Source of the DNA: Desulfomonilia bacterium
GTDB lineage: Bacteria; Desulfobacterota; Desulfomonilia; UBA1062
Assembly: GCA_050014195.1 (NCBI GenBank)
Contig: JBEKDT010000007.1
Location: 150,793 to 214,792 of the forward strand
Direction of reading: 5' to 3'
DNA length: 64,000 nt
Positions within the stretch are counted from its first letter, which is position 1. Each line of letters starts with the position of its first letter. Below the pieces are notes generated by a model. That model saw only the letters and a program-made list of their open reading frames with translations, was not told the origin of the DNA and ran no database searches. Made by a program: the position numbers and the translations under genes. Shown piece by piece: positions 939-26,206 of the stretch.

Positions 939-2009
939 ATGAAAAGAATCTTGCTGATACTGTTGCTTTTTGTTCTACCGATTTATTCCGGCTTTACTGC
1001 TGACACAAAATATGAGGTAGCTACCTTTGCAGGCGGCTGCTTCTGGTGCATGGACGCTGCTTTCGAAGATATCCCGGGCGTCATTGAAGTGATAACCGGA
1101 TACACGGGTGGGCATACTAAGAACCCAACCTATGAAGAAGTTTCAGCCGGCGGAACAGGCCATGCCGAGGCAATCCAGGTTACATACGATCCAGCTAAGG
1201 TTACCTATTCAAAGCTCCTTGATGTCTTCTGGAAGCAAGTCGACCCTACAGACCGCAGTGGTCAGATGGCTGACAGGGGATCACAATATAGAACGGTAAT
1301 CTTCTATCATACGGAGGAACAAAAGCGGCTTGCCGAGCAGTCAAAGCAAGTCCTTAAAGAATCAGGTAGGTTTAATAAACCTATTGTCACAGAAATTACA
1401 AAGGCAACAGATTTCTACCCTGCAGAAGAGTACCACCAGCATTATTTCAAAAAGAATCCACTTGGCTATAACTCGGGACGCGATAACTATCTGAAGAAGG
1501 TATGGGCAGACAACAACAGTGTTTCACTCCCACGATATACAGATAAGGACTACAGAAAACCATCAAAAGTTGAACTGAAAAAGAAGCTCACACCCCTGCA
1601 ATTCAGGGTGACCCAGAACAAGAGCACGGAACAACCATTCGATAACGAGTACTGGAATAATGAGCATGAGGGGATCTATGTTGATATTGTGTCCGGTGAG
1701 CCTCTATTCAGCTCTAAGGACAAATACGACTCTGGTACTGGATGGCCTAGCTTCACAAAACCGCTTGAACCTGGAAACATTGTAGAGAGGCAGGATGGAA
1801 GCTTGTACATGCTGAGGATCGATGTGAAGGAGGTTAGGAGTAAACTTGCTGACTCACACCTTGGCCATGTCTTTACGGATGGTCCTGCACCAACAGGACT
1901 GCGTTACTGCATGAATTCGGCTGCTCTGCTGTTTATTCCAAAAGAAGACCTGACAAAAGAAGGTTATGGGCGGTATCTTAATCTTTTCAAAAAAGATAAT
2001 GAGTTCTAA
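939..2009 (+). CDS. msrAB: Exported bifunctional peptide methionine sulfoxide reductase MsrA/MsrB (copy 1)
   Basis: Signal peptide; MsrA motifs GGCFW and AEEYHQ; MsrB motifs GTGWPSF, HLGHVF, RYCMNS. Confidence 0.95.
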
Positions 2010-2168
2010 AGAACTCAACTCCTCATCCTATTCAAGTTAGAGTCGTTTCCTTGATGGTATCGTTGAAGCCTGCAATATTTATAGACATCTCTAATCTCTC
2101 TGGTTTTTTCAAATAAGAACATTATTTCTTAGGGGGAGATCAAAACCGAAACGAAAGGAGCATGATCC

Positions 2169-2477
2169 ATGAATAATGGCTTTCTTATGAGGAAGTTTGC
2201 CATTGCAGGGTGCCTGCTTTTACTCTTGTGCGGGGTGCATTGGACTGCGCAGGCTTCTGATGAAGAGAAAAAAGTGGTATTTGTCGTGGCTTGATATGAC
2301 GTAGGCAAAGAGGCCTTGGAGAGGCTTCCAGGTGTAAAAAGGGTCGAAAAAGGATTCCATTTTTTTCAAGAAATAAACACTGTTTTTTATGACCCGTCAA
2401 AGATAACCGTCGACGAAATGGAAAGGGCGTTGAAGAAGGCAGGAACATATAAGAAGACATTGGGAGCGAAACCGTGA
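2169..2477 (+). CDS. Putative exported selenoprotein (102 aa, UGA at codon 42), mini MsrA-N/HMA-like fold; not in the ORF track
   Basis: AAGGAG RBS; signal peptide; in-frame TGA at 2292-2294 in VVFVVA-U-YDVGKEALERLPGVKRVEKG...TVFYDPSKITVDEMERAL; hairpin GAGGCCT-TGGAG-AGGCTTC at 2310-2328. Confidence 0.7.
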
Positions 2478-2645
2478 GCATCCTTCCTGTCAAACCGGGA
2501 ATGAGGTGAAGGAATGTCCGGGTCGTATCATCTCAGTTTGATGCTCTCTGAAAACTAAAGATAGTTAAGGTATGGGTTTCTTTTTACTCAAGACAAACAC
2601 TACATAAATAACTATAAGTTTCCAATTATTCAGGAGGAATAAAAG

Positions 2646-3719
2646 ATGATCAGAAATATCATGAAAGGATTTATAGCCATATTGCTTGTATTGCCACTAT
2701 CTACCGGGAACGCAGCTAATACAAAATATGAACTGGCTACCTTTGCCGGGGGATGCTTCTGGTGCATGGTGCATCCCTTTGATAAGCTCCCTGGGGTGAA
2801 GGAGGTTCTCTCAGGATACACCGGGGGACATACCGTCAACCCCACCTATGAGGAGAACTCATCCGGGACAACAGGCCATGCCGAGTCCATCCAGATAACC
2901 TATGACCCAGCGAAGATATCATATGCGGACCTGCTAGAGGTATTCTGGCGGCAGATTGACCCGACCGATGCAGGGGGGCAGTTTGTGGACAGGGGAAACC
3001 AGTATAGGAGCGCCATCTTCTATCACAACGATGAGCAGAAGAGACTCGCAGAGGAGTCCAGGGACCGTCTCGCAAAGTCAGGCAGATTTACAAAACCCAT
3101 CGTCACCGAGATTGTGAAGGCTGGCCCGTTCTATAAGGCAGAAGAATACCACCAATATTACTACAAGAAAAACCCGGTCCGGTATAAATATTATAGGTAC
3201 AGATCAGGCCGAGACCAATTCCTTGACAAGGTCTGGGGGAAAGACAGGGAAGATACACCAGCAAAGGTTAAAACAGGTTCATACACCAAGCCGAGTGCAG
3301 AGGTCCTGAAAAAGAAGCTCACACCAATGCAGTTCAAGGTAACCCAGAAGGGTGGAACAGAACCGGCTTTTGATAATGCATATTGGAACAACAAGCATGA
3401 AGGGATTTACGTGGATATCGTCTCCGGAGAACCACTATTCAGCTCCAAGGATAAGTATGACTCCGGCACCGGCTGGCCAAGCTTTACCCGGCCTCTGGAG
3501 CCGGGCAATATCGTGGAGAAGCAGGATAATACCCTGTTCACTACAAGGACAGAGGTCAGGAGCAGGCATGCAGATTCTCATGTTGGGCATGTATTCAATG
3601 ACGGCCCACCCCCTACGGGACTGCGCTATTGCATGAACTCGGCTGCCTTGCGCTTTATCCCCAAGGAAGACCTGCAAAAGGAAGGATACGGACAGTATCT
3701 TAAACTATTTGATAAATAA
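2646..3719 (+). CDS. msrAB: Exported bifunctional MsrA/MsrB (copy 2)
   Basis: Signal peptide, GGCFWC, AEEYHQ, GTGWPSF, RYCMNS; paralog of 939-2009. Confidence 0.95.
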
Positions 3720-3785
3720 AATGAATCTTCCTGATAAGATGGATGATTCCTTTTATCATAGGTTGATTCCCTGAGACTCAAATGC

Positions 3786-4487
3786 TCAAGTTAAAGGTCC
3801 CGACTGCCCCTTTATTTGAAGGGATGCCTTGATCTTCTTGTAGACTGTCGGGATCAATGCAAAAAGCCCAAGGAGTGCAAAGGAGATGAGCACACGGGGA
3901 CTCGCAACATCACGCATGGTATTGATGGATGCAATGCTCGAACCTGCATTCGCATAGACGAAGCTTCCGGGAAGAATCCCCACCATGGTACCTATGATGT
4001 AGGTCCTCAGCTGCAGGCCCGTGATCCCACAGGCAAGGTTGACGAGGAAAAATGGAAAGAGTGGGACTAGTCGCAAAAAGAGGAGGTACGACATCCCGCT
4101 TTCGCTGAGTCCCCTATCCAGGGCCTCCATTTGTTTGCCGAACTTTTTCACCACCCAGTCCCGCAGCAGGTTACGGGCCAGGAGAAAGGCCAGGACAGCC
4201 CCCATCGTGGCCCCGATATTCACCCATATCGTTCCCATTAGCGCCCCAAATACGGCTCCGCCAGCCAGGGTAAGGATGGCCGCCCCAGGCAGGGAAAGGG
4301 CGGTCTGCACAGTATAGATGACGATGTAGCTCACGATGAAGATGAGCATGTGGTTTGAATAGTAATTCAGGAGATAGTCTCTGTTTGTCTTGAGGCTTTC
4401 AAGTGTGAGGTATCTTCCGAGATCCAAATAGTAAAATATGCCGATCGCGAGGGCAATGATAATGAGTAATGCTATCTTCTTTTTCAT
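3786..4487 (-). CDS. TVP38/TMEM64 (DedA/VTT) family membrane protein
   Basis: Hydrophobic; motifs LSLPGAAILTLAGGAVFG and LRLVPLFPFFLVN. Confidence 0.9.
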   Translation of the reverse strand: MKKKIALLIIIALAIGIFYYLDLGRYLTLESLKTNRDYLLNYYSNHMLIFIVSYIVIYTVQTALSLPGAAILTLAGGAVFGALMGTIWVNIGATMGAVLAFLLARNLLRDWVVKKFGKQMEALDRGLSESGMSYLLFLRLVPLFPFFLVNLACGITGLQLRTYIIGTMVGILPGSFVYANAGSSIASINTMRDVASPRVLISFALLGLFALIPTVYKKIKASLQIKGQSGPLT

Positions 4488-4639
4488 TGGTTCTCCGCTA
4501 TCGCTTCTTCTCCATTGAGAGATACAGAATAATCATGATCATCATCCGGGAGCTTGAAAATATCTCCATTTACCATCTGCAGATTTAATAAAGGGAATTG
4601 ATCACCAGTATCCAATGCATTTGAACTCACCCTGGCCAT
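4484..4639 (-). pseudogene. Truncated peroxiredoxin/redoxin-like N-terminal remnant (51 aa)
   Basis: GGAGG RBS then MARVSSNALDTGDQFPLLNLQMVNGDIFKLP, resembling an AhpC/TSA-family N-terminus; no active-site segment; stop overlaps the TVP38 ATG. Confidence 0.5.
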
Positions 4640-4846
4640 GTTTTTCCTCCAAGATTGGATTATCTTCTGTATAATGATAAGCTTCTAATGTCAGGAATCA
4701 AAAAGGTTGATATTTTTATCATGCCCTGAGTCCTTGTTTAATTCTTATATCTCCCTATCATAATCTACCAATTTGCTGAGAAAAAATCCTAAGCAAAAAA
4801 CAAACTTCATGAACACGGTATCATCTTGAGTGAGGGAGGACAGAAG

Positions 4847-6334
4847 ATGCCAACCTTTGATTATGATCTCGGAATCATCGGCGGAGGAGCTGCAGGGCTG
4901 ACAGCCGCGGCAGGCAGCGCACAGTTCGGTGCAAAGACCATCCTTATAGAGAAAACAGACAAGCTAGGGGGAGATTGCCTCCATGTGGGCTGCGTTCCGT
5001 CAAAGACACTCATCCGCACTGCACGGGTATGGGCACAGGCAAAAAGATCCAAAGAATTCGGTCTGCCGGAACTGTTGCTTCCCCCTGTCGATCTCGGTGC
5101 AGTCATGGACCGAGTACATGCGGTCATAGAGAAGATCCAGCACCACGATTCTGCTGAACGGTTCTGCTCTCTCGGGGCGCGCGTCCGCTTCGGGAGCCCT
5201 GCCTTTGTGGATAACCATGTAGTAAACCTTGACGGTGAACGCATCTCGGCAAAGAGCTGGATCATCGCCACCGGGTCGAGCCCTGCCCTGCCTCCGGTAG
5301 AGGGATTGAGTAGTGTGGCGTTCTGGACCAACGAGACCGTATTCTCTCAGAGGAAGCTCCCCAGGTGCCTCATCGTGCTGGGTGGCGGACCTATCGGCCT
5401 GGAGCTGGCCCAGTCATTTGCACGTCTGGGAGCAAAAGTTATCGTTGTAGAATTCATGGGCCAGATCCTGGGCCCTGAAGACGCTGACCTCGCTGACATC
5501 CTGAAAGAGCGACTTGTTGCCGAGGGTGTGGAAATCCATACCGATACCAAGGCTATCAGAGCAGAATCAAGTGGCGAAATGATTGCACTGACTATTGGGC
5601 CTTCAAAGGGGGAGGGACCAACCCAAGTCATCGAAGGGGATGCCATTCTTGTTGCAGCTGGACGCAAGCCGAATATTGAAGGTCTTAATCTCGATGCCGC
5701 CGGAGTAAAATATACTCCGAGGGGCATCCCTACAAACGACCGGATGAAGACCAATATCTCCCATATCTATGCCTGCGGTGACATCAACGGAGTCATGCCG
5801 TTCACCCACGTTGCTGGCTATGAAGGCGGGATCGCGCTCACCAACGCCGTGCTCCGCCTGCCTAGGAAGGCGGACTATTCAAAGATCGGGTGGTGCACCT
5901 ACACAGACCCTGAGGTCGCGAGCATCGGGCTCAATGAAAAACGCGCCCAGAAAGAAGGCACCGGGTACCGCGTCATCGAAGAGCACTTTGTAGATAACGA
6001 CCGGGCACTTGCAGAGGGAGAGACGTTGGGCAAGATTAAGATGCTCGTGAGCCCGAAAGGCTCTCTGCTTGGCTGTCAAATCATCGGGGCGCATGCGGGA
6101 GAGCTCATCCATGAGTGGATAGTGTCCATGGCTGCTGGTATTAAACTTTCAACCATGGCGGGCACAGTGCATATCTACCCTACCATGTCTGAAATCTCCA
6201 AGCGCGTAGCAGGCGACCTATTCGCATCGAAGATCTTTTCGGAAAAGACCAAGACTGTGCTCCGCCTGCTTTTCAACCTCAAAGGCAGGGCGTGCAGCCT
6301 GACTGAAGCAGTTGCTGATAACCTTCACTCGTGA
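4847..6334 (+). CDS. Pyridine nucleotide-disulfide oxidoreductase (Lpd/mercuric-reductase-like flavoprotein)
   Basis: GGGAAG FAD motif, GGDCLHVGCVPSK redox disulfide, GGGPIG NAD(P) motif, HIYPT. Confidence 0.9.
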   Translation: MPTFDYDLGIIGGGAAGLTAAAGSAQFGAKTILIEKTDKLGGDCLHVGCVPSKTLIRTARVWAQAKRSKEFGLPELLLPPVDLGAVMDRVHAVIEKIQHHDSAERFCSLGARVRFGSPAFVDNHVVNLDGERISAKSWIIATGSSPALPPVEGLSSVAFWTNETVFSQRKLPRCLIVLGGGPIGLELAQSFARLGAKVIVVEFMGQILGPEDADLADILKERLVAEGVEIHTDTKAIRAESSGEMIALTIGPSKGEGPTQVIEGDAILVAAGRKPNIEGLNLDAAGVKYTPRGIPTNDRMKTNISHIYACGDINGVMPFTHVAGYEGGIALTNAVLRLPRKADYSKIGWCTYTDPEVASIGLNEKRAQKEGTGYRVIEEHFVDNDRALAEGETLGKIKMLVSPKGSLLGCQIIGAHAGELIHEWIVSMAAGIKLSTMAGTVHIYPTMSEISKRVAGDLFASKIFSEKTKTVLRLLFNLKGRACSLTEAVADNLHS

Positions 6335-6435
6335 TTAATATTAATACGCCATGGAATAGTGTCCTTGACACTTGTTTTTTTGATGATCTTAAAGCGGGGA
6401 ATATAGTACATGATATAAGAAGAAGGAAATGTAGC

Positions 6436-7428
6436 ATGACGTCTTCTGAGCAGATCAGGCTGCTCAATGACAATCCATTGAACATATCGTTTCATAAGAG
6501 GATCATCTCGCCTCTCTGCGCTGATGCCATCGACATACTCCAGATAAATGTGGGTAAAAGATGCAACCTCTCGTGCAGGCACTGCCATGTTGAGGCCGGG
6601 CCACACAGGTCAGAGGTAATGGGCATGCAGGTTTTCGAGAAGTGTCTTCAAGTGCTCCAAGATCACCCGATCGGTACCATAGATATTACCGGTGGTGCTC
6701 CGGAAATGAACCCTGAGCTTCCATGGTTTATTCAGGAAGCTGCCGGATTGAAGCGCAGGCTGATGGTTCGCTCGAACCTCGTTATCCTCCTTGAGAAGCC
6801 CTATGAGCATCTCATAGACCTTTATGCAGATAATAAGGTCGAGATTATCGCCTCCTTGCCTGATTACCACGAAGAACGGGGCAACAGACAGAGGGGGGAA
6901 GGAGTTTTCAAGCGAATCCTGGAAGTGATGCGACTGCTCAATGAGCGGGGATACGGCAAGCCTGGGAGTAGCCTGATCCTGGATCTTGTCTATAATCCTG
7001 TGGGCACCTACCTGCCCGGGGCGCAGCAGGCCCTGGAGTATGAATATAAAACCAGGATGGAAAGCGAGCACGGAGTCGTCTTCAATACCCTCTATTGCCT
7101 GGTCAACTCACCAGTGGGCAGGTATCTCGACTATCTAATCCGATCGGAGAACTTTGAAGATTACATGCATGCCCTCAATACATCCTTTAACCCATCTACT
7201 ATTCATTGTCTGATGTGCCGGAATACCCTGTCCGTAGGATGGGATGGGCACTTGTATGACTGTGACTTCAATCAGATGCTGGGTCTGACGGTTGAATGTA
7301 CTCCCTCAAACAATATCAACAATTTTGATTTTGAAAGATTGAGAAACCGGAAGATCGTCATCGGCAATCACTGCTTTTCCTGTACTGCAGGTGCAGGTTC
7401 ATCATGCCAGGGAGCTCTTGAAAAATAG
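6436..7428 (+). CDS. arsS: ArsS-like radical SAM / Cys-rich protein (arsenosugar-biosynthesis radical SAM family)
   Basis: CNLSCRHC, DITGGAPEMN, YDCDFNQML, C-terminal HCFSCTAGAGSSCQG; start chosen by RBS (ORF track starts at 6331). Confidence 0.8.
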   Translation: MTSSEQIRLLNDNPLNISFHKRIISPLCADAIDILQINVGKRCNLSCRHCHVEAGPHRSEVMGMQVFEKCLQVLQDHPIGTIDITGGAPEMNPELPWFIQEAAGLKRRLMVRSNLVILLEKPYEHLIDLYADNKVEIIASLPDYHEERGNRQRGEGVFKRILEVMRLLNERGYGKPGSSLILDLVYNPVGTYLPGAQQALEYEYKTRMESEHGVVFNTLYCLVNSPVGRYLDYLIRSENFEDYMHALNTSFNPSTIHCLMCRNTLSVGWDGHLYDCDFNQMLGLTVECTPSNNINNFDFERLRNRKIVIGNHCFSCTAGAGSSCQGALEK

Positions 7429-7517
7429 TTCACAACTGGAGATACCTTTACTTAGCATAGGTTGATCAAGCGGTAATAAACTTATATCCTCAATATTATG
7501 AAAAAGAGGTGGTAAAA

Positions 7518-7979
7518 ATGGGAGAGATCGTTCACACTTCACGCATCAAAATTTTCCGTGAAAAAGGCCCCACCCGAAGAGCACTCATTGAGGGGTTTAA
7601 TGAGCCTGTATATTACGGTGTACATGGTGGGATAAAGAAGTTTTATAAAGTCGAACCTGAAAAGGAGCACGCTGCGACTCTTGATCATATCGTAGCAGCA
7701 GTTGCTGCCTGAATGATGGGAACACTGGCCACGGTGCTGGCCGGAAAAAAGATCCCCACCCCTGAAGATAAATACTGGGCAGAAGTTGAAGGTGATATCG
7801 AGGATGTCAATGGTATACTCAAGATCACCCGGATACGGGTGAATTACCATCTCAGATTGCTTCAGGAGAAAATCGGAGAGGCAAAAGAGGCCTTTTCTCT
7901 CTATCTCCCCTTTTGTCCCGCAGCCCAAAGCGTCATAGGCTGTATCGATATCAGGGATGATTTGATCATAGAGCAATAG
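7518..7979 (+). CDS. OsmC-family peroxiredoxin-like selenoprotein (153 aa, UGA at codon 65); split in two by the ORF track
   Basis: ORFs 7509-7712 and 7713-7979 are in the same frame joined by TGA 7710-7712, at the position of the OsmC catalytic Cys (DHIVAAVAA-U-MMG); second Cys in FCPAAQS; hairpin at 7725-7744. Confidence 0.85.
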
Positions 7980-8465
7980 ACTGTATCATTGATTCGGGAC
8001 AAGTTAAATCATTGAGCTAAGAGTCCGGATGTCAGATCTTGTTCTCCAGATTGTCATTTTTTATGATCCACACAGAACACATAGATTCCGTGATAATCAA
8101 AGCCTGAGTTGAAGTTCTCGATACATAGATAATATGCCAAGGCCAATGGTTATTCCAGAGCATTTCTTTCCAAACGGAACGGTTTGCCCATAGTGAATAT
8201 TTGTAACAAATAATCACCAATTGTTCATTAGCCGTGTGGAAGAGTGATATTTATTATTTCTATCAAGGATTTCTTTGGAGCTGCTTATCAAGCTTGTTTT
8301 TTGACTTTTGCTTCTGTTTTTCGATGTTCTGTTTTCGACCCTTTTCCTTATCTTTCTTGCCGCCCTTGTCTCCCATTACGTTTCTCCTTCATTATTAATT
8401 GTAATCTTGCATACTTTTCAAAACCGTGAATTCCACTTTCAGGAAGTACATCAAACGGATGAACC

Positions 8466-8759
8466 TTATTTCTCATCACTGTCATCTAATTTTGCCCTCA
8501 ATGCAGTGGATAAGGAGAAGGTAATAGCACGCCTTGGGGATATGATCATTTCTTCGCCGGTCTTCGGATTACGACCTCTTCTCGCTCGCTTCTCCCTTAC
8601 ATGGAATTTACCAAAACCGGAGAAATTAACATCCTCACCCTTGCTCAGATTGGATTTGATAATCTGAATGAAAGTTTCGATACCTTCAGATGCAGTTACT
8701 TTATCCAGACCTGTGTTCATGAGTATATCCTCAATAATATCCTCTTTGGTCAGATTCAT
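8466..8759 (-). CDS. IHF/HU-family DNA-binding protein (IHF-alpha-like)
   Basis: FSGFGKFHVREKRARRGRNPKTGEEMII; GAGGAG RBS. Confidence 0.9.
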   Translation of the reverse strand: MNLTKEDIIEDILMNTGLDKVTASEGIETFIQIIKSNLSKGEDVNFSGFGKFHVREKRARRGRNPKTGEEMIISPRRAITFSLSTALRAKLDDSDEK

Positions 8760-8997
8760 ATGGTCTCCTCTTAAGAATAAAATTCTTACTGTGCTTATAA
8801 GGAATATACCATATGTAAGATAACATTCCATAAGTTATCTTCAAACTGACCCCCCCCTCCCTTAATGCTTTGTTGATAGGATTGAGATGGTTTGAAGTAT
8901 GATCCCGCATGCAGCATGAAGATAGGAATATTATAATCAACCTTGCAAAGTAACTTTAACAATCATAGAATCAAATATTATATCAAGAGGAGTTTCC

Positions 8998-9420
8998 ATG
9001 AGGAAAAAGAGTCTGGAGTTCGTTCTGATGGTCAATGCTGTACTGGAGATCAAGGGTGATCAGGCACAGGTTGTTGTAAAAAATATCAAAGTAAAACCAT
9101 CCATCATATCTTTGCCAGTTGAGGCAGCTCCTACCATGAAGAGGAAACGTATAAAGAAGAAGCTCAGTAAATCAATCCATGACATAATCTTAGAATCTGC
9201 GAAAAAGGTCTCCAAGAAAGCAGATGATGGAATCTTCAAATCGGTGGACCTGTTTAATGTGGCAATCAAGAAATACCCTGAGCTGAATAAGAAGAGTTTC
9301 AACACCATGGTCATATCAGCAGCCCCGGAACACACCTCATGGAAGTATACTCGCAATGGGAAGGACTACTTGGTCTATCTGGGCAAAGGGAGATATAAGC
9401 TGAGTGATAAGATTAAGTAG
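8998..9420 (+). CDS. Hypothetical basic protein
   Basis: GAGGAG RBS, 140 aa, Lys-rich. Confidence 0.6.
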   Translation: MRKKSLEFVLMVNAVLEIKGDQAQVVVKNIKVKPSIISLPVEAAPTMKRKRIKKKLSKSIHDIILESAKKVSKKADDGIFKSVDLFNVAIKKYPELNKKSFNTMVISAAPEHTSWKYTRNGKDYLVYLGKGRYKLSDKIK

Positions 9421-9492
9421 GGTATCAGCTGTCCATTATACGAAAGCAAAAGATTCGCATCATATCTTTTCAATAAATACGAGGAGGCACTC

Positions 9493-9768
9493 ATGACAAA
9501 AACAGATTTAGTTGATGTTATTGCAGGCAAAGCAAAGATATCCAAATCAGCAGCATTGGAAGCCGTAGATGCACTCACAGAGTCAATTACTGGCGCTCTC
9601 AAGAAAGGCGATAAGATCATTTTAGTAGGTTTTGGGACCTTTGATGTTGCTAAAAGGGCAGCCAGAGAAGGTGTAAATCCTCAAACCAGGCAGAAGATAA
9701 AGATCAAGGCAAGCAAGGCTCCTCGTTTCAAAGCTGGCAAGGCACTGAAGGATGTTGTGAACAAGTAG
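9493..9768 (+). CDS. hup: HU DNA-binding protein (copy 1)
   Basis: MTKTDLV...LVGFGTF...NPQT...PRFKAGKALK. Confidence 0.93.
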   Translation: MTKTDLVDVIAGKAKISKSAALEAVDALTESITGALKKGDKIILVGFGTFDVAKRAAREGVNPQTRQKIKIKASKAPRFKAGKALKDVVNK

Positions 9769-12284: not shown

Positions 12285-12300
12285 AGGATAGAACTTGTGT

Positions 12301-18300: not shown

Positions 18301-18423
18301 CGCGAGCAGATGCCTGAACTTATGCCCAAGGTCATGGATAACCTTATGCCTCATATGATAGGTGATGTGGTGCCGCTGGTCACTCAGCCCATGATTAATT
18401 ATTTAAAAGGAAAACCACATTAA
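15337..18423 (+). CDS. FAD-binding + 4Fe-4S + CCG-domain oxidoreductase (GlcD/GlcF-like fusion) with Met/Pro-rich tail
   Basis: PRGKASS FAD region, DPKGILNPGK, CSQCGYC and CTTCELC, two CCG motifs, WHDSCH. Confidence 0.9.
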   Translation: MRMSNLSNTHKEYLKEKFKDRVNFDDVERMLYSHDIAAMPSLIKPLIGDTTPDAVVQPQSEEELKELVMWAAKNHVPLTPRGKASSGYGGVLPVENGIVVDFYRMKKVLSVDKDKLTATVQPGIVWEALDHELKKKGMTLLTYPSSYPSSTAGGWLAQGGAGFGSFEAGWFRDIVLSARVVLPDGMVSVFEGKDLDMISDAEGITGLISEITLKVQNDEPMDLVSIGCPNPHDLQNLMEAMIAQDLPIWSIVFINPKMAEMKNQAPIMEHWGHPAEERVLLPASYIITLTFRKKDSQKIMDGLNKIIKLCEAEILSDRIAHHEWKHRFKLMVVKRLGPSLVPAEVVIPLSAFGDFMKKVESTIQQPVVKEGVVIRKSTSGKPEVVILGFIPSDERKFSYNFVFPLSLTVMKIAEKYGGRAYATGLYFKSKAKAVLGKDRLARMKSFKKKIDPKGILNPGKVLGAGLIGTAVKLASIFEPFIRPFSYAIITEVGERPEKDVRDIPPDVAWYAYSCSQCGYCVDECDQFYGRGWESQSPRGKWYWLREYMKGKQEWNQKMVDTFLVCTTCELCNFRCSAALPIEPSWMKLRGKLVDEEKKMTFPPFEIMSAAAMKEGNIWAGYRKDRSKWFPEDLKEKHGPGVTAKNVYFAGCTASYVEEDIGMASVRLLDKAGVDFTYVGNKENCCGTPMLVAGKWDVFEAIMRKNIKAVKEAGSDTVITSCPACNMMWRHVYPTWAKKLGIDYDITARHYSEILSEKIRSGEFTFPDTGQKEVTVTWHDSCHIGRVSGVYEEPRDLIKAIPHVKFVEMDYHHAEAHCCGSVLNLLKEPLVAADIGETRLNEALDAGAQKVLALCPCCEFQFRVTADKKKMPIEVVDLARFSASALGYDFPDPNPEVAKQWAVFEAMIALMTPQGFADLMGTMWPELISSMPFGMGPMMRIMGKIPGALDLMKPMFPILFPRLLPMMMPKVMDTMLKKVGERIPMPDYMREQMPELMPKVMDNLMPHMIGDVVPLVTQPMINYLKGKPH

Positions 18424-18444
18424 AAGAGAACCAGGGAGGGAACC

Positions 18445-18828
18445 ATGAGAATAGGAAGATCTCTAGGTCTAGTATTCTTACTTATCCTGACAGTAGGAAT
18501 TATTCAGGGGTGCTCTCATCGTTGGCATGATTGGGATGATCAATGTTATGGCCATGGTGGAGGAATGATGTGGCATGGTGGAGGCTGTGGGCCAGGCATG
18601 ATGGGCTCAGGACCAGGTTACTATCGTTCTGGAGAACCACTAACAATTGATCAAGCCAAATCGACAGTGGAACGTTATATAGCTTTTTCAAGAAATCCTA
18701 ATATCAAGGTTGGTCAAGTCACAGAAAAAGACAAATATTTTGAGGCTGAGATTATCACAAAAGAAGGATCTATAGTAGATAAGCTTATGATAGATAAGCA
18801 AACCGGATGGATGAGATCGGTTTATTAG
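18445..18828 (+). CDS. Lipoprotein with His/Gly/Met-rich linker and PepSY-like C-terminus
   Basis: Lipobox-like IQGC; HGGGMMWHGGGCGPGMMG; IDKQTG. Confidence 0.7.
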   Translation: MRIGRSLGLVFLLILTVGIIQGCSHRWHDWDDQCYGHGGGMMWHGGGCGPGMMGSGPGYYRSGEPLTIDQAKSTVERYIAFSRNPNIKVGQVTEKDKYFEAEIITKEGSIVDKLMIDKQTGWMRSVY

Positions 18829-19467
18829 ATGAGCTATAGCAAAAAGCGTGATTTTAATAAGGAGGCAGCTTCCTGGGATGAAGAGCCAGGACGGGTAAAG
18901 ATTGCTAATGATATTGCTGATGCCATATCAGATGAAATAATTTTGACCCCAGATATGTCTTCTTTGGACTTTGGCTGTGGCACGGGTCTTTTGACCCTCA
19001 GGTTACAGCCTTTAGTCCATTCAATAACTGGTGTTGACAGTTCCCAAGGAATGCTTGATGTTCTTAAGGCGAAGATTGAAAATAAGAAGCTGACTAATGT
19101 AACAACTGAATACCTGGATCTAGAGAAGGGTGATGTTCTGGGTGGCATTTACCAACTAATTGTCAGCAGCATGACCTTGCATCATATTCAGAATATAAAA
19201 CCTCTCTTCGATGAATTCTACAAGATATTATCTCCTGATGGATATCTCTGCATTGCTGATCTTGATCTCGATGATGGGAAGTTCCATGGCACCAATGAAG
19301 GGGTATTCCACTTTGGTTTTGATCGGGCAAAATTGCGTCAGGTTTTTATGGAGGCAGGATTTGATGCTATCCGGGATCGGACTGCTACAGAAGTAATGAA
19401 ACCAACTGCTGATGGAATAAAGCAGCTTTTTACAATATTTCTTATGATAGGCCGGGAAAGTCCTTAA
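18829..19467 (+). CDS. Class I SAM-dependent methyltransferase
   Basis: LDFGCGTG motif I; MTLHHI. Confidence 0.92.
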   Translation: MSYSKKRDFNKEAASWDEEPGRVKIANDIADAISDEIILTPDMSSLDFGCGTGLLTLRLQPLVHSITGVDSSQGMLDVLKAKIENKKLTNVTTEYLDLEKGDVLGGIYQLIVSSMTLHHIQNIKPLFDEFYKILSPDGYLCIADLDLDDGKFHGTNEGVFHFGFDRAKLRQVFMEAGFDAIRDRTATEVMKPTADGIKQLFTIFLMIGRESP

Positions 19468-19989
19468 TGGTGTTGTAAAACAAATAATCATACAGATTAG
19501 TTAATTACATATGCTTATATACATTTCTCTCGATCGAGTTCAGCTGTTTACATAATAAACCGAAGATAACATGCCAGAAGACACAGTTTCTGATTATTGA
19601 ATATTTGTAACCACATAATCACCACTTTGCCCACCCCGTTGATAACTTCGATAACTATTCGGATTTGAATACATGCAAAAACCAGAGATATGTTAAAGAT
19701 ATCTTTACTTTTAAGGTCCTATGTCTGGAGTATCGATAGTGGCAAGTTATCATAAATTGATCTCTCGGAAAGTACATATAGCTTGTGGTTATCTCTAGTC
19801 GGTCATTACTGAATATATCATTCGGAGATCTCAATAGGCTATTCAGAATGGCAAAGTATAAAGATCTATAAGAGATGTGGCATGCTTGCTTAGGGCATTA
19901 AATCGCCGATAATCATTCATATGTTAAATATAATTTGTACATTTCAATAGTTACATATCATTTCCCATTATAGAGGCTGAGGTCTCCCT

Positions 19990-20544
19990 TCAATCAATGT
20001 AGCTTACTGTGCCCTTCCTGCTACGTTCAGCAACAGTGAACTTGTTTTCAGCTGCTGCATAACCAATGATGATAGCACATTTTAGCCCATAACCTTCAGG
20101 GATTCCTGCATATCGTGCAAGGTCACGGTTGTTCTCACCATTCAATGCCAATGTCGGGCTGACAAGGAAGCATGATCCCAAGCCCTGTCCGGTAGCTTCA
20201 AGTAGCATATTCTCTGCAGCAAGGGCTGCATTGACAGCACCATAAGGAGAATTATCCGGAGCAGAAAACAGGATCAGTACAGGTGCTCCATATAGAGGCT
20301 GATACCCTGGCAGAGCTGCTCTACTTTGGAGAAATTCAATGCCAGAGTGAACCATTGCATCGAGTGTCCGATCATTTATTTTTCTACGAAGCTCTGAATT
20401 ACGGACTACCGAAATCTGGAATGGCCCAGCATTCGGAGCCCACCGACCAGCTTCAATTATCTTATCTAGATCATCGGCAGGAACTGACTTATCCAAGTAG
20501 GCTCTTATACTTTTCCTCTTTGATATTGCTCCTGTGATATTCAT
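19990..20544 (-). CDS. Nitroreductase family protein
   Basis: RKSIRAY, WAPNAG, AENMLLEATGQGLGSC. Confidence 0.92.
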   Translation of the reverse strand: MNITGAISKRKSIRAYLDKSVPADDLDKIIEAGRWAPNAGPFQISVVRNSELRRKINDRTLDAMVHSGIEFLQSRAALPGYQPLYGAPVLILFSAPDNSPYGAVNAALAAENMLLEATGQGLGSCFLVSPTLALNGENNRDLARYAGIPEGYGLKCAIIIGYAAAENKFTVAERSRKGTVSYID

Positions 20545-20664
20545 TCTCGTTCTCCCTCTTGGTCATCAGTTCTGCACAGCAATAGTACTCATAACAGATC
20601 TATAGTCATGTCACATTCAATAATTCTGCATAAAGACCGATCGTCTCAGGATTGATATCAATCT

Positions 20665-20994
20665 CTATTCGTTATCCATATCTCCATGCTCTTCAAGGAC
20701 AATGTTATCAGCATCTACGGCAACTTCAGCCTCAACCTCATTAACAACCTCGATCACATTATCCCTTTCTTCCAGAGCAAATATAACAGGGGTTGCCTTA
20801 TTCATGATGGCAGATCGTCTATTTCTTTTGTGAATCTCCTTTGCCTCTTTATTATCATTTTGATTGACTCCACATGAAGGGCAAATGGGTTCTGGTCTGC
20901 CCAGGTCATAAAACTTGAAGCCACACTTAAAACACTTGTATCGTTCACCAAGATCCATCGGAGTAATCTCCTCTTTCTGGGATTGATTCTCCAT
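20665..20994 (-). CDS. FYDLN-acid domain zinc-ribbon protein
   Basis: CFKCGFKFYDLG...CPSCG with acidic tail. Confidence 0.8.
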   Translation of the reverse strand: MENQSQKEEITPMDLGERYKCFKCGFKFYDLGRPEPICPSCGVNQNDNKEAKEIHKRNRRSAIMNKATPVIFALEERDNVIEVVNEVEAEVAVDADNIVLEEHGDMDNE

Positions 20995-20998
20995 GGTT

Positions 20999-21274
20999 CT
21001 ACTTATTCACCACAGCTTTCAGTGGCTTGCCAGCCTTGAACCGAGGAGCCTTGCTTGCCTTGATCTTTATCTTCTCTTTTGTACGGGGATTCATGCCTGT
21101 ACGTGCCGCTCTTTTAGCTACATCAAAGGTTCCAAAGCCTATCAGGGTGACCTTATCACCTTTCTTGAGAGCACCAGTAATTGCCTCTGTAAGGGCATCT
21201 ACTGCTGTCAATGATGCTGTCTTTGATATTTTTACCTTCCCTGCAATAACATCCACCAATTCTGTCTTTGTCAT
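20999..21274 (-). CDS. hup: HU DNA-binding protein (copy 2)
   Basis: Close paralog of 9493-9768. Confidence 0.93.
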   Translation of the reverse strand: MTKTELVDVIAGKVKISKTASLTAVDALTEAITGALKKGDKVTLIGFGTFDVAKRAARTGMNPRTKEKIKIKASKAPRFKAGKPLKAVVNK

Positions 21275-21374
21275 GAGTTCCTCCTCGTATTTATTTAAAA
21301 GACCATGTTGGTACGAATGGTTCCCTTATAAAGAACAGCTGGTATTTTATCCAGCCAAATCTCTTAGGATTATA

Positions 21375-21667
21375 GTTACCACATATTGGAGTTCAGACCC
21401 TTTATATTGAGCCGGGCAACCCTTGGGAAAACGGCTATATTGAAAGTTTCAACGGTAAGTTCAGGGATGAATTACTCAATGGGAAGATCTTTTATACACT
21501 AAAAGAAGCAAAAATATTAATTGAGCAATGGCGCATGGAATACAACACTGTCAGGCCGCACAGTTCCTTGAATTATCGTCCTCCAGCGCCAGAGACATAC
21601 TTAACCAGAGAATTCATAATGGCTGAAGTCTAACTTAAAAGGTGGTACAAGGATTTGGGGCAGGTCA
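21375..21667 (+). mobile_element. IS3-family remnant (transposase C-terminus plus right end)
   Basis: Frame reads TLYIEPGNPWENGYIESFNGKFRDELL...EYNTVRPHSSLNYRPP; ends GTGGTACAA...GGGGCAGGTCA like an IS3 terminal repeat; left boundary approximate. Confidence 0.85.
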
Positions 21668-21820
21668 GTCGATGACTACAGACAAACCTTTGATTCTGTT
21701 GAATGACTCTCACCCTATCACATGCGAATGGGAAAGAGGTTGGAAAGATTATGAACAAACGGCTATACAAGAATCGCTTGCAAGATAGGGACTGCTTGTT
21801 CGCCCGTTCAGGAGACTGAC

Positions 21821-22120
21821 TTGGTCCGCTGGTATTTATACATTGTCCGGACTGTTGATCAATTAATGTATGCTGGAATATCAACTGATGTTCAAAGACG
21901 CTTTAAAGAGCATATCACCCAAGGTCGAAAAACAGCTAAATACCTTCTTGCCCACAAGCCGCAGAGTTTAGCATTCTCACATCCTGTCGGAGATCGGGCC
22001 TTGGCTCTGAAAGTCGAGTACCACTTCAAGCGACTCTCTAAAAAGGAAAAGGAGAGGGTAGTGGATTCGCAACAATTGGTATTTGACAGGGACTCAGGGA
22101 AGATCCGGGTTGCAGAATAA
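21821..22120 (+). CDS. GIY-YIG nuclease family protein
   Basis: WYLYIV...YAGISTDVQRRFKEH...ALKVE. Confidence 0.85.
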   Translation: MVRWYLYIVRTVDQLMYAGISTDVQRRFKEHITQGRKTAKYLLAHKPQSLAFSHPVGDRALALKVEYHFKRLSKKEKERVVDSQQLVFDRDSGKIRVAE

Positions 22121-22184
22121 ATTGAATGTGAAATATATACTCTATATTGCTAATGTCACATTCTATATTTTACTACTTTGCGGT

Positions 22185-24395
22185 CTACAACATCTCCGCT
22201 GATTCCAGGCCCATTAACGAGCTGATCCTTGCAGCAAGGTTTGTAAGTCTCTTTGTTGACTTCCTGTTTCTGACTGCAATGGAAAGAGCTTTCCCCTGGC
22301 CTATGATGATCACCAGTTTCTTCCCTCGTGTTACCGCTGTATAAATCAGATTCCGCTCAAGAAGCGTGTAGTGCTGCATGGAAAGGGGTATAACTACCGC
22401 AGGATATTCAGACCCCTGACTCTTGTGTATGCTTGTGGCATATGCCAGTGATACCTCATCCAATTCCCCGAACTCGTAATCAACAGACCTCTTGTCGAAC
22501 TCAACAGTGATCACACCTTCCTCTAGACTGATCTCCCTGATTTGCCCGATATCCCCATTGAAGACCTCCTTATCGTAATTGTTCACCATCTGGATAACCT
22601 TGTCACCAGGGGCAAATGTAGTTCCGTAACGAGTTACCCTGGGTTCTCCCTTATCATTGAGCACCTTCTGCAGCTCGGTATTCAGGGAGCGGGTACCAAG
22701 ACCTCCACGGTTCATGGGTGTCAGTACCTGTATATCCTTTACCGGATGGAAGCCAAATCGATCAGGAATACGTTCAGTAACTACATGGAGTAATTTCTTG
22801 TAAATATCCTCGGGTGTCTCTGATGGTATGAAATAGAAATCGGTGGGTTCTGCTTTTTCTGATTTTAATGGCAGCTCCCCTTTATTTATACGATGGGCAT
22901 TGACAATAATCCGTGATGTAGCTGCCTGGCGAAATATCTCTGTCAATCGAATTGTGGGAAGAGCCCTTGATTCAATGATGTCCGCCAATACTGAACCTGG
23001 CCCCACAGAAGGTAGTTGATCCACATCACCCACAAGTATCAATGCAGTATTGTCCGCAACTGCTGCAAGCAGGCGGTTCATCAATACCACATCCACCATC
23101 GAGGTCTCATCCACGACAACCAAATCAGTTTCTAGGGGTTCTTCCCGGTTTCGTTTGAAGCTAAAGGATCTTGGGTCATACTCCAGCAGCCGGTGAATTG
23201 TCTTGGCCTCCAAACCGGTGGATTCAGAGAGCCGTTTAGCTGCTCGGCCTGTTGGAGCACAGAGTCTGACTTCCACATGCTTTGCCCGGAGAATGTGAAG
23301 TATGGAGTTGACCAGGGTGGTCTTGCCCACACCCGGACCACCGGTGATGACTACTGCTTTACTTCTCAGGGCAAGTTTCAGTGCTTCACACTGGGATTGT
23401 GAAAGGTTCAGGCCCGTTTTCCCCTCAACCCACGGTATGGCCTTTTCGGCATCGATATTAACCCAGGGGGGAGAACCTCGCACAATACGTTCAATGCTGT
23501 TGGCAACTCCCACCTCGGCCCGGTGGAGCGAGACAAGAAAGAGGCATGGCTTGCCGTCTATCTCTTCCTGAACCAGATTCTTTTGAGTGATCTCTTCATG
23601 GATTGCCTCTTCCAGGGTTGCAACAGGGATCTGAAGCAGCTTCTCAGATTCTGTAACAAGTGTTTCCCAGGGGACAGCGCAGTGGCCGTCTCCTGACATT
23701 TCCTGCAAGACATGCCGCACACCTGCCTGAGCACGAATAAGAGATTCAGAGGAAATGCCCAACTTACCGGCTATGATATCAGAGGTCTTGAAGCCAACAC
23801 CCTGGATATCCAGCGCCAACCGGTAGGGATTCTCGGTTACCTTGATGATAGCAGCATCTCCATAGGTCTTATATATACGTACAGCACGAGCTGTACCGGC
23901 ACCATGAGACTGGAGAAAGAGCATGATCTCCCGAACAGCCTTCTGATCCGCCCAGGCAGAGGTGATCTTCTCCATCCGTTTCTTGCCGATACCGGATAGA
24001 GTCATGAGTTTCTCTGGTTCTTCCTCAATAATGGTAAATATCTCAGCTCCAAAGGCTCCCACGAGAACCTTGGCGAAATGAGGGCCAATACCTTTGACCA
24101 TACCGGAGCCGAGATACTTCTCAATTCCTTCAATTGTGTTGGGTGGAACTACCTTCAGGTTATTTGCCTTGAACTGCAGGCCGTGAGTCTTGTCATTATG
24201 CCAGATACCGAGGCATTCGACAAACTCTCCAGGAGTTACGGAGGCAGCTGAACCTACAACAGGCACTAAGTCCTGGTGTCCTTTTACCTTGACCCGTAAG
24301 ACACAGAATCCTGTCTCTTCATTATGGAAAGTGACCCGTTCAACAGATCCTGAAATACGCTCGGTTTGGGGTTCCGCTGAGACGGCTCTTTTCAT
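22185..24395 (-). CDS. recD2: RecD2-like SF1B ATP-dependent DNA helicase
   Basis: [51 protein letters not shown]. Confidence 0.95.
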
Positions 24396-24576
24396 CGGTC
24401 TTCATCCTGGAAGAATATTCCCTCTCATCAGGCCATTATTTGTAACGAATCAAAAGACATGATTAGATATCAGAGTAGTAACGGAATAGTTACATAGTCA
24501 AGCCTGTTCTTTGCCTTCTTCATCATCCTCTTAATAGAATACTTTAACATCTTAATATTGTATCGATATCAGTCAG

Positions 24577-25623
24577 TCACCCATGCACTAAGTATAAATA
24601 GGGTTGCATATTTTCTGATTGTGTTGCTGCCCACTCAAGATAATAAGTACTCATGAGTTGATCTATGATCCCATCCAACCTTCCTGACCGGGAAATTGTC
24701 TTCATGCCAGGCGGCATTGTGCAAATGACATACTCCCGGAGTTTCATTTTATCTTCTTCTCCCATGGCTTGGATTCGCTCCTTAATTCGCTCAAGCTCAT
24801 CTTTCATGTTTTGTTCTTCCTTTTTTGTTTCCTTCAAATCACGTTGTGATTGTTCTCCGGCCAATCGTTTCTTTTCTTCCTGGATCCATCCATGCGCAAT
24901 TTCATCTTGCCAGCCCTTGTCATTTAGCCAGGTAGTCGGAAGAGGGATTTTGTCCTTTTCTCGATTTCTCCAAAGTGACCGGTTAAGATACTCAATGCAT
25001 CGTATGATAAATATTGCCTGGCGAGGTTCAGGGTTTAGTTGTCTCCATAGCTCACGCGCTCGCTCCTTTTTTTCCTTTCGAGGATATACTGGCCAAAAGG
25101 CATTCTCAAAGAAATCATCGACACGGGTAAAGACACTTTTGACCTTTTCTTGTGTAGAAAAAACCGGAATGGACAATAAAGATTCTTCTAAAGAATCTTT
25201 ATCTAAAACAATACTATGGGTGACATTTTGTCGGGGGGGGGTGACATCCTGACACCGGGGGGGTGATAATTTGTCATGGGAGGGTGACAATTTGTCATGC
25301 CCCTCCTTTTGGCTTCTCTCACTACCAGGAATCATCGATAAATTAACAGTTAACTCTCTTTCGTCCTGACCATCCGGCTTTTTGGAGAACCTCACAATCA
25401 GATAGCCCCTCTCCTCAAGATCTTTGATCCATCGCTGTATACTTCGAGCTTCAACAGAGAGAAGGGCTGCAAAATATGAATTCGAGGCAATAACCCTTTT
25501 ATCTCCCTGCATAAATGCGACCTTTGATAATAGAGCTTTTTGCTCAAGAGACAGATCAGGCATCAACAGAAATGGAGCTGTGATAGTAATAAAATCAGTG
25601 TTTTTTAATTGATAGTTACCCAT
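24577..25623 (-). CDS. Phage/plasmid-type replication initiator (N-terminal winged HTH, internal iterons)
   Basis: ASNSYFAALLSVEARSIQRWIKDLEERGYL HTH; FWPVYPRK...PLPTTWLNDKGWQDE C-domain; repeats in the linker. Confidence 0.75.
   Translation of the reverse strand: MGNYQLKNTDFITITAPFLLMPDLSLEQKALLSKVAFMQGDKRVIASNSYFAALLSVEARSIQRWIKDLEERGYLIVRFSKKPDGQDERELTVNLSMIPGSERSQKEGHDKLSPSHDKLSPPRCQDVTPPRQNVTHSIVLDKDSLEESLLSIPVFSTQEKVKSVFTRVDDFFENAFWPVYPRKEKKERARELWRQLNPEPRQAIFIIRCIEYLNRSLWRNREKDKIPLPTTWLNDKGWQDEIAHGWIQEEKKRLAGEQSQRDLKETKKEEQNMKDELERIKERIQAMGEEDKMKLREYVICTMPPGMKTISRSGRLDGIIDQLMSTYYLEWAATQSENMQPYLYLVHG
25218..25297. repeat. Four iteron-like repeats (GGGTGACA-N-TTTGTCA consensus, 21-22 bp period) inside the rep gene
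   Basis: Copies start at 25218, 25239, 25261 and 25282. Confidence 0.75.
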
Positions 25624-26073
25624 AGAACACTTCCTCGAAGTAACTCTTATCTAACGCTTTGATTATTTTACCATGGTTTGTGATGTTGCGATTTTGAGAC
25701 GAAGTTATGGCGTGGATGTGTACAGATGATGACAAGAAATTATGGAAGCATATGATACTCGAGATCACCATGATTTTGAGAATGGACAGTGATTTATTTT
25801 TTATAGATATTCCTAATGCAATGCGCATACATGATCTCTCTTGATTTGGGTGATGGATGGGGAATTCAGATTGAAAGGGCCTGAGTGTGTAACAGATGTG
25901 TAGTAGGTCTACAGATATAGGCCACGGCTTGATGGTCGAGTGATCATATCCCTCCACCATTTTAGATTTACTGAAGGGGTATATTGGGGGCAGATGGTCC
26001 GGAAAGCAAAGTGAGATTAAGGCCTCCATGAGATAAAATCCTAGGCGGCCCAATAAGCTTTTTTCATAGGCCT

Positions 26074-26206
26074 GCTTGCAAACGCTTGCACTTTGCTTGC
26101 AGGTTTTTGGGGTATTTTTAAGGCTATGACTTAATGAAATCAAATAGTTATTGGCGGAGCGCATGGGAATCGAACCCAAGCGATTAGTTGGTACGGATTT
26201 GGTACG
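26074..26206 (-). mobile_element. att-like junction: tRNA 3'-end fragment (tRNA-Sec-like) with IHF site and arm-type repeats
   Basis: Minus strand TGGGTTCGATTCCCATGCGCTCCGCCA (26178-26152); AATCAAATAGTTA (26138-26150) matches IHF consensus WATCAANNNNTTR; GCTTGCA x3 (26074-26101); TTGGTACG x2 (26188-26206). Confidence 0.75.

Follow-up and report, generated by a model that had tools for sequence, protein, structure and literature searches.

A 64,000-nucleotide stretch of DNA from a Desulfomonilia bacterium (contig JBEKDT010000007.1, positions 150,793 to 214,792; hereafter the window) raises the question of whether three short open reading frames (ORFs A, B and C), each interrupted by a single TGA and interspersed with redox genes, encode selenoproteins, and on what kind of mobile DNA they lie. 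The window belongs to a 4.2-Mb genome, G000 (G000:C7:150793-214792); G002, G003 and G175 denote other genomes compared, and C1, C5, C7, C9, C13 and C18 denote contigs. Phylum-wide counts refer to 401 genomes, except the count for ORF B (201 genomes), and the integrase count refers to 121 genomes of the class. The stretch is contained in 24 public DNA sequencing runs, labelled as peat or wetland metagenomes; the runs listed included none from RNA, which has no bearing on expression. Our overall reading, favoured with moderate confidence, is a conjugative element at a non-tRNA site that carries three likely selenoprotein genes, with the product of ORF C forming a selenocysteine (Sec)/Cys pair at the membrane that would be recycled by thioredoxin.

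All three frames lie on the plus strand: ORF A at 2169..2477 (TGA 2292-2294), ORF B at 7518..7979 (TGA 7710-7712) and ORF C at 13486..13707 (TGA 13573-13575). Each has a purine-rich ribosome-binding site, one in-frame TGA and a hairpin whose stem starts 15 (A), 12 (B) or 11 (C) nt after the UGA, with the G-containing loops GGA, CGGUGC and AGGU at 23, 19 and 19 nt, respectively (stem-loops 2310-2328, 7725-7744 and 13587-13605). A first-pass annotation had described these features and proposed Sec recoding, and both the description and the proposal stand. The consensus bacterial Sec insertion sequence (SECIS) is a stem-loop with a G in the first two loop positions, 16 to 37 nt from the UGA (PMC13188914, Fig. 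2A legend). SECIS calls were made with our own script of the published model, in a strict and a looser version, and not with bSECISearch; a stem-loop was found in all three frames (in the window ORF C by the looser version only). The host has the machinery that the annotation had wanted located, namely selA, selB, selC and selD, and selD itself carries a TGA. Moreover, the UGA is conserved and followed by coding sequence in 16 of 18 loci of ORF A, 19 of 20 of ORF B and 120 of 121 of ORF C, and homologues with Cys at the UGA position, the Sec/Cys pairs that the annotation had proposed looking for, exist for all three. ORFs A, B and C are thus very probably selenoprotein genes, and Sec is almost certainly inserted at these UGAs, where SelB would read each UGA as Sec by way of the hairpin. 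The recoding does not differ from known bacterial Sec recoding with an in-gene SECIS, which it resembles in UGA plus stem-loop, Cys homologues and host selA/B/C/D; it is families C and A that differ from those listed in the available part of PMC13188914.

ORF C carries most of the novelty. It encodes a putative single-pass membrane microprotein with a predicted helix at residues 4 to 22, a predicted Sec at position 30 (U30) and a cysteine at position 36. Relatives occur in 171 of the 401 genomes (about 43%), with TGA at all 150 places among the matches listed. In the top 30 loci the codon was TGA without exception, and a Cys followed at +5 or +6 in 29 and at +9 in one; 150 true TGA stops served as a control, and only 13 of them had a Cys at +5 to +8. 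The SECIS model was passed by 23 of these 30 loci compared to 14 of the 150 true stops. A codon-free metagenome scan yielded 121 rows, with 120 TGA, one TGC and no TAA or TAG, against a background of 42% TGA among the stops of G000 (1088/2618). Indeed, 99 of 114 family members but only 314 of 912 synonymous shuffles passed the SECIS model, and the hairpin is therefore more than a by-product of the peptide. A pattern scan of genome contigs gave at least 120 matches; of 120, 119 had an upstream hydrophobic stretch, which is absent from the pattern, and the remaining one was cut by the locus end. Record titles of the matches name Desulfobacterales, Geobacter, Thermodesulfatator, Acidobacteriota, Planctomycetota, Spirochaetes, KSB1, Latescibacteria, Fervidibacter and Myxococcales. 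Cultured hosts are among them (Geobacter sp. OR-1 and Thermodesulfatator autotrophicus), and the protein is small enough for synthesis and assay, which makes its function directly testable.

A profile search found 1811 representatives of ORF C in the protein database. In the top 150 of these, the U position was occupied by Cys in 104 (90 with a second Cys at +5), by Trp in 30 and by other residues in 9, and 7 entries ended there; the Trp entries are probably UGAs read as Trp by gene callers. Only the name "hypothetical protein" was seen among the relatives, and the window gene is stored as a 29-amino-acid stub, in line with the earlier claim that standard gene calling conceals such frames. Among 30 members none matched a Pfam or NCBIfam model better than an E value of 0.02, a word-based protein search gave nothing, and no match was found in plasmids or viral contigs. 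The co-occurrence of ORF C with selA was uninformative as a test for Sec, with selA present in 371 of the 401 genomes; 9 of 20 listed selA-negative genomes carry ORF C, and all five of these that were checked have selB and tRNA-Sec, so assembly gaps are the likely reason for the missing selA.

The ORF C protein has a median length of 55 amino acids (43 to 92, n = 92). On average, 0.12 Lys plus Arg residues lie on the N side and 4.4 on the C side, a charge bias that suggests an N-out/C-in topology. The eukaryotic proteins SELENOK and SELENOS are small single-pass membrane selenoproteins that carry Sec in a poorly structured cytosolic tail. ORF C resembles them in small size, single membrane pass and predicted cytosolic Sec tail, whereas its Sec, part of a U-x4-C motif, follows the helix at a distance of 8 residues; no homology is claimed. 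One subfamily (L238, L239, L262, L271 and others) has U-A-V-P followed by an Arg-rich motif and no Cys at +5, often with a Cys at the very C-terminus; L286 shows T-C-C-C at this place.

Neither ORF C nor ORF A was described in the literature searched, with the BSepDB family table, Haft and Tolstoy 2025 and a groundwater selenoprotein study lying outside the comparison, nor in the available parts of PMC12013277, PMC13326102 and bioRxiv 10.64898/2026.04.03.716425. No domain or motif matching ORF C was found in the available part of the 2026 table of 119 families (PMC13188914 Table 1; rows lacking a model identifier were compared by name), and by this comparison the family apparently has no catalogue entry. 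If so, a selenoprotein of about 43% of the sampled phylum genomes and of many phyla has been missed, gene callers keeping a 29-residue stub, and its architecture, a membrane-anchored microprotein with U-x4-C, is not evident in that table. In its widest form, which we hold with somewhat less than even confidence, the proposal is that ORF C represents one of the most widespread bacterial selenoprotein families missing from catalogues, a membrane-bound redox switch of about 55 residues (N-out/C-in, Sec-x4-Cys, with a functional parallel in SELENOK/SELENOS) that would be recycled by thioredoxin in Desulfobacterota, Acidobacteriota, Planctomycetota and further phyla and would have moved between hosts on a conjugative element, together with an unlisted exported one-Sec HMA/MsrA-like protein.

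The genes around ORF C hint at a redox role. Upstream lies a thioredoxin gene, trxA (13115..13450, plus strand; WCGPC motif; TIGR01068 above cut-off), and divergent from it a gene for a Crp/Fnr-family regulator (12301..12990, minus strand; Pfam/NCBIfam) that lacks the FNR-type N-terminal Cys cluster and has TPEALSR in its helix-turn-helix (HTH). Between the two is a perfect FNR/DNR-type palindrome, TTGAT-N4-ATCAA (12995..13008), which was free of mismatches in all 10 crp-trxA-C loci examined (9 distinct places); one further locus has it ahead of ORF C itself, at a distance of about 110 nt. The regulator carries Pro-Glu at its specificity positions, which fits a TTGA-type box by the rule given in PMC1274295. 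The HcpR/DNR regulons described there are alike in having a Pro-Glu Crp/Fnr regulator, divergent from its target, and a TTGA-N6-TCAA-type box, but the delta-proteobacterial HcpR box is TTGAC-N4-GTCAA; neither this box nor the hcp target was found at the trxA locus, where the target would be trxA and ORF C. The end of ORF C is overlapped by a gene for a DUF2892/YgaP-like transmembrane protein (13679..13879, plus strand). The 73 ORF C neighbours scanned, taken from 108 after removal of duplicates and doubtful ORFs and without a background control, included 13 redox or sulfur proteins, 8 stress regulators, 5 FmdB zinc ribbons and 4 ArsR-type regulators. In the mechanism that we propose, ORF C would insert N-out/C-in, with U30 and C36 facing the cytoplasm at the inner membrane; oxidants, persulfides or nitrosating species would convert the two residues into a selenenylsulfide, which the co-transcribed TrxA would reduce; and the divergent Crp/Fnr protein would activate the trxA-ORF C operon under redox stress or stress of the nitric oxide type. 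That the U/C residues of ORF C form such a redox pair, facing the cytoplasm and recycled by TrxA, seems to us slightly better than an even bet.

ORF A encodes a protein with a signal peptide, an HMA/ferredoxin-like domain and one predicted Sec, U42, in the motif F-x-V-x-U-Y-D-V-G-K. Matches were found in 19 of the 401 genomes, some of them plain HMA domains. In 18 orthologous loci, 5 of which are close copies from G000, G002 and G003, the codon was TGA in 16, TGT in one and AGC in one, and seven database homologues of the Cys form had Cys (5), Ser (1) or Asp (1) at this position. The predicted model (predicted local distance difference test score 93.8) has the order beta-alpha-beta-beta-alpha-beta, which is the ferredoxin-like fold expected of HMA/MerP proteins, and places U just before helix 1. 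Its best structural matches were CopA domains and MerP, with template modelling (TM) scores of 0.6 to 0.8; MsrA ranked lower (TM 0.66 to 0.68). In sequence, however, the alignment to HMA proteins is confined to the residues that follow the motif, and the MxCxxC metal-binding loop of the HMA/MerP family is missing. NF041115, which demands two Sec/Cys in UxxU and more than 95 bits, was not reached either, with one U and 28.7 to 29.9 bits, and the match to NF041383 fell far below its cut-off. With NF041115, MerP and CopZ-type HMA proteins ORF A thus shares the fold, and with MerP the signal peptide, but it has a single Sec, no CxxC/UxxU loop and about 29 bits against a cut-off of 95.

At the same time, U42 aligns with the catalytic Cys in the GGCFW motif of MsrA (BLASTP E 3e-4; hhalign probability 94), a family that includes Sec-MsrA, and msrA genes neighbour ORF A in the window and in G175. 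In contrast to MsrA, ORF A has only about 70 residues, with neither a Trp following the Cys nor any of the C-terminal half; it gave no PF01625 match, and TIGR00401 matched only one of the 18 members (E 0.003). A true MsrA is ruled out by motif, length and fold rank. We read ORF A as an apparently unlisted one-Sec HMA/MsrA-like exported protein, which would present a single selenol where helix 1 of its HMA-type fold begins and may act beside exported MsrAB as a sacrificial reductant or as an acceptor of soft metals or metalloids.

ORF B is OsmC-like, with a predicted Sec, U65, in U-M-M-G-T. It passed PF02566 with 34.5 bits against a cut-off of 27.5, the predicted Sec taking the place of the N-terminal active-site Cys, and had no NCBIfam match at E 0.05. 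It was found in 21 of 201 genomes, and of 20 loci, 19 had TGA, all with a SECIS-type hairpin, and one had TGC and no hairpin. OsmC-like selenoproteins are already catalogued in PMC13188914 (Table 1; PF02566, motif UxxT). ORF B shares PF02566 with the catalogued protein and has Sec where one homologue has Cys, but its loci show U-M-M-G-T instead of the tabulated motif. ORF B is possibly a separate OsmC subfamily and may function as a Sec-using peroxide reductase of the OsmC/Ohr type.

Several observations weigh against this picture. Each hairpin taken singly is only modestly stable (z -0.4 to -2.0), so the weight of the evidence comes from conservation; the ORF C hairpin of the window, which has a bulged stem, failed the strict script and passed the looser one; and Sec insertion is deduced from sequence. 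The topology of ORF C is read from charge bias only. No Cys lies within 10 residues of the UGA in 30 of 118 Sec-form metagenome members, and the U/C pair is therefore not universal. Outside the crp-trxA loci the palindrome is rare (upstream in 5 of 86, downstream in 1 of 86), and most ORF C neighbours are unrelated, the redox role being read from the motif and the neighbours. As for ORF A, the two local copies differ after the UGA by 11 non-synonymous and 6 synonymous codons, which is a weak signal of constraint.

The alternative that survives best, although we consider it unlikely, is that ORF C (and ORF A) are selenoproteins that do not cycle between redox states but each bind a soft metal or metalloid (Cu, Hg, As, Zn), and that the module deals with metals or metalloids, for example beside ArsS chemistry. 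It would account for the HMA fold of ORF A and its weak matches to MerP and NF041115, for the arsS gene in the module and the arsenosugar-associated peroxidase-like gene of related copies (TIGR04169 above cut-off), and for the ArsR-type regulators (4) and FmdB zinc ribbons (5) among the 73 neighbours of ORF C. Against this, ORF A has a single Sec and no HMA CxxC loop, ORF C is linked in this genus with trxA and a box of the FNR type, and neither arsM nor mer genes were found in the window block by Pfam and NCBIfam scans.

The three probable selenoprotein genes lie on a mobile element, as had been claimed, and its boundaries could be mapped exactly. A 13-bp repeat, AGGTAGAGAACCT, occurs in exactly two copies in the 4.2-Mb genome, at C7:26641-26653 and at window position 26248-26260 (plus strand), and each copy lies about 40 bp from an arm-type repeat (26188..26208, plus strand, in the window; its counterpart, about 40 bp inside the left end, has one mismatch in the core 21 nt). 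The left copy adjoins a tyrosine integrase gene and overlaps the stop codon of a gene for a geranylgeranyl-reductase-like flavoprotein; the other island end and the integrase, both of which had been sought, are thereby located. The element spans 150.4 kb (G000:C7:26641-177052), of which about 124 kb, with the integrase, the relaxase, the type IV secretion genes and the left attachment site (attL), lie left of the window and the right-hand 26 kb within it (1..26260); its G+C content is 0.458 compared to 0.502 for the genome. In G003, which is 94 to 95% identical, an empty site is preserved in which a single 13-bp copy links both flanks, and the left-flank DNA adjoins the right flank in 10 of 11 relative loci, the contig of the eleventh stopping there. 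Both junctions are spanned by contigs of seven distinct public runs, all in the integrated form and with no loose end at either core; two of these runs may be the source of the genome, and contigs drop rare variants. On the opposite side, the excised form was not seen in the run contigs, which cannot show rare excision.

The element carries genes for a MobA/MobL relaxase, a coupling protein and homologues of VirB4/6/8/9/10/11, and further genes for the integrase, two ParAB pairs, Rep3, ArdC and UmuDC. Gene content was taken from a scan of 47 selected proteins against models plus a further scan, and no model identified VirB2, VirB3 or VirB5 among the element proteins scanned. With an integrase, flanking direct repeats and an empty site in relatives on the one hand, and a relaxase, a coupling protein, VirB4 and mating-pair genes on the other, the window block makes up the right end of an integrative conjugative element (ICE) of 150 kb at a 13-bp non-tRNA site. 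The locus offers a mapped case of selenoprotein genes carried by a conjugative element whose ends are known exactly and whose empty site is preserved in a relative. Known elements with a tyrosine integrase, a MOBQ-like (MobA/MobL) relaxase and a P-type type IV secretion system are alike in having the integrase at one end, a direct-repeat core, arm repeats, relaxase, coupling protein, VirB4/6/8/9/10/11, ArdC, umuDC and parAB. Unlike these, the present element has a core that overlaps a flavoprotein stop codon, although homologues of its integrase use tRNA or tmRNA genes, and it bears a nested relic of a selC attachment (att) site.

That relic is the tRNA 3' fragment at which the first-pass annotation had placed the end of the island; the true end, the right attachment site (attR) at 26248-26260, lies 70 bp further on. 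The annotation was right that the fragment (26152-26178, minus strand) is tRNA-Sec-like: its 27 nt match the 3' end of the host tRNA-Sec, with 21 nt exact, a 1-nt deletion and then CCGCCA. It points inwards and is followed by a box that fits the integration host factor (IHF) consensus and by three arm-like TGCAAGC repeats (26074..26150, minus strand). The fragment had led to the model that selC is where the element integrates and that it would therefore tend to reach hosts able to decode its Sec cargo, which we regard as quite improbable and which, for the present insertion, is largely refuted. In its favour, the fragment with its IHF box and arm-like repeats does sit at the right end, and selC elements do circulate in the genus: in G002, a different integrase sits at an intact selC together with ArdC and MobA genes that are 73 to 80% like those of this backbone. 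The arm repeat of the element also follows selC fragments in G000:C9 and G002:C18, the latter fragment being preceded by similar GCAAG repeats, and G000 has no copy of ORFs A, B or C (five in total) outside the element.

However, the empty site and the 13-bp direct repeat define a different core, by which selC is ruled out as the integration site. A selC-integrated island would have the intact selC at one end and the 3' fragment at the other; here, both ends are 13-bp repeats, the intact selC is on C13, and no partner selC att site was found within the element. A second exact 27-nt selC fragment is on C9, from which it appears that selC (C13/C9) has probably received a separate insertion of its own. 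Of five homologues of the element integrase (37 to 41% identity, in 4 of the 121 class genomes), two point at tRNA-Pro, one at a gene called tRNA-Cys, one at a tmRNA insertion and one at an uncalled RNA end; none lies at selC. The ORF C relatives look mostly chromosomal, and plasmids and viral contigs gave no match. The selection logic is weak as well, since targeting selC would filter hosts very little when 371 of 401 genomes have selA, and in the literature searched we found no account in which targeting of selC filters hosts for Sec cargo. The simplest reading is that the selC fragment is the relic junction of an earlier selC-specific satellite, which is perhaps also the source of the rep-RecD2-HU end; a tRNA fragment near the end of an island need not mark its integration site. 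Side observations at these sites include a serine recombinase, DUF2924 and a tRNA-Ala 3' fragment near the intact selC and the 27-nt fragment, which lie near contig ends (G000:C13:1-4950 and C9:1-4385), and, at the integrase end of L106 (G002:C7), an 86-nt tRNA (1353-1438) that ARAGORN calls Cys(GCA) and that is longer than the ordinary tRNA-Cys of the host.

Two further alternatives concern the recoded frames themselves. It is very improbable that what matters in ORF C is mainly the act of translating it, so that it would be a leader that senses selenium or a small sink for selenium and not a catalyst; its tiny size, its variable tail and neighbours and the subfamily that lacks a nearby Cys would fit, but only 33 of 110 loci showed a same-strand ORF in the next 500 nt downstream, so that there is often nothing to couple, and many Cys forms keep C-x4-C, which a Sec sensor would not need. 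It is hardly credible that the UGAs are ordinary stops, with ORF C encoding a membrane peptide of 29 residues and the other two frames being broken genes, for although databases hold the 29-amino-acid form of ORF C, single hairpins have modest z-scores and the Sec product is known here from its gene only, the ORF C codon is never TAA or TAG in 121 rows, all three frames have Cys homologues, the folded domains need the sequence past the UGA, the ORF C hairpins exceed synonymous shuffles and the sole Cys-form ORF B locus has no hairpin.

With three probable selenoprotein genes on a conjugative element as the preferred reading, the remaining cargo can be described. Pfam and NCBIfam models confirmed the neighbours named by the first-pass annotation (two msrAB genes, a disulfide oxidoreductase, ArsS, trxA, DUF2892 and the Crp/Fnr regulator), and its redox-flavoured view of the cargo is supported. 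The msrAB genes (939..2009 and 2646..3719, both plus strand) each encode an N-terminal hydrophobic leader from which export seems likely. They are followed by genes for a VTT-domain membrane protein (3786..4487, minus strand; domain match), a pyridine nucleotide-disulfide oxidoreductase (4847..6334, plus strand; below all NCBIfam cut-offs shown) and an ArsS-family radical S-adenosylmethionine protein that has no in-frame TGA (6436..7428, plus strand; TIGR04167, 417 bits, cut-off 300). This first module (msrAB-A-msrAB...arsS-B) is present twice on the element, inverted, with 89 to 92% identity; in the second copy (G000:C7:82291-88354) a small CMD-like gene, whose G002 counterpart passes TIGR04169, replaces the VTT and disulfide oxidoreductase genes. 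In a comparison with 30 relatives, in which 9 candidates were scored for each genome, only G002 and G003 gave DNA matches spanning ORF A, once beside a MobA-like gene. The second module (crp, trxA, ORF C) is syntenic in all seven genus genomes fetched, which were picked for having crp-trxA matches; in G003 it lies in a core purH/purD region, 94 to 97% syntenic with G000:C1, whereas neither ORF C nor DUF2892 is present at the paralogous locus on the G000 chromosome. An objection that the block might be syntenic and core in relatives therefore holds for half of it: the crp-trxA-ORF C part is core in the closest relative. The cargo is a mosaic: a patchy mobile msrAB/arsS/osmC module is joined by a copy, presumably captured, of the crp-trxA operon that occurs throughout the genus. 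It would have been assembled from these two parts, with the selC fragment left from an earlier selC-specific element.

The five copies in G000 (two of A, two of B and one of C) are all on the element. A stricter genome-wide motif scan gave 54 candidates, including these five, and a relaxed scan gave 421, too noisy for counting; across the two scans we recognised seven chromosomal genes that, from their motifs, we take to encode selenoproteins. An enrichment of selenoprotein genes on the element is suggestive. One further candidate, at G000:C5:6914 (plus strand), has a recoded UGA (S-A-P-U-S-V-V) and a SECIS-type hairpin, and no family match was assigned to it.

Downstream of ORF C lie genes for a FadL-type outer-membrane barrel and an FAD/4Fe-4S/CCG oxidoreductase (13995..18423, plus strand), paralogous to a chromosomal locus on C1. 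The block at 20665..25623 (minus strand) holds genes for a FYDLN protein, HU, GIY-YIG (on the plus strand; 21821-22120, Pfam), RecD2 and an HTH replication-initiator-like protein with four internal repeats, and is likely to be the remains of a satellite-type element. RecD2, GIY-YIG and three HU/IHF genes were confirmed by Pfam/NCBIfam; of the annotated rep gene with iterons, the repeats are real (four GGGTGA(C/T)A at 25218-25290), but the gene itself has an HTH_36 match only. Elsewhere on the element, a patatin gene beside a nucleotidyltransferase gene with a weak SMODS match (E 6e-4; G000:C7:133621-135482) forms a pair like those of cyclic oligonucleotide-based antiphage defence (CBASS), TerB/BrxD-type and restriction-modification genes lie at 71 to 92 kb, and a gene for a 364-amino-acid tyrosine recombinase is present in two copies that are 97% identical (G000:C7:69927-71142 and 130613-131839). 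A short piece at window position 21400-21650 resembles, by eye, the end of an IS3-type transposase. The sole Rfam matches in the window were group II intron domains (RF02001, RF01998 and RF00029) at 61328-61956 on the minus strand. Finally, a lipid A acyltransferase gene (window 9908-10894) is 96% identical to a copy on C5, which points to a recent duplication or capture.

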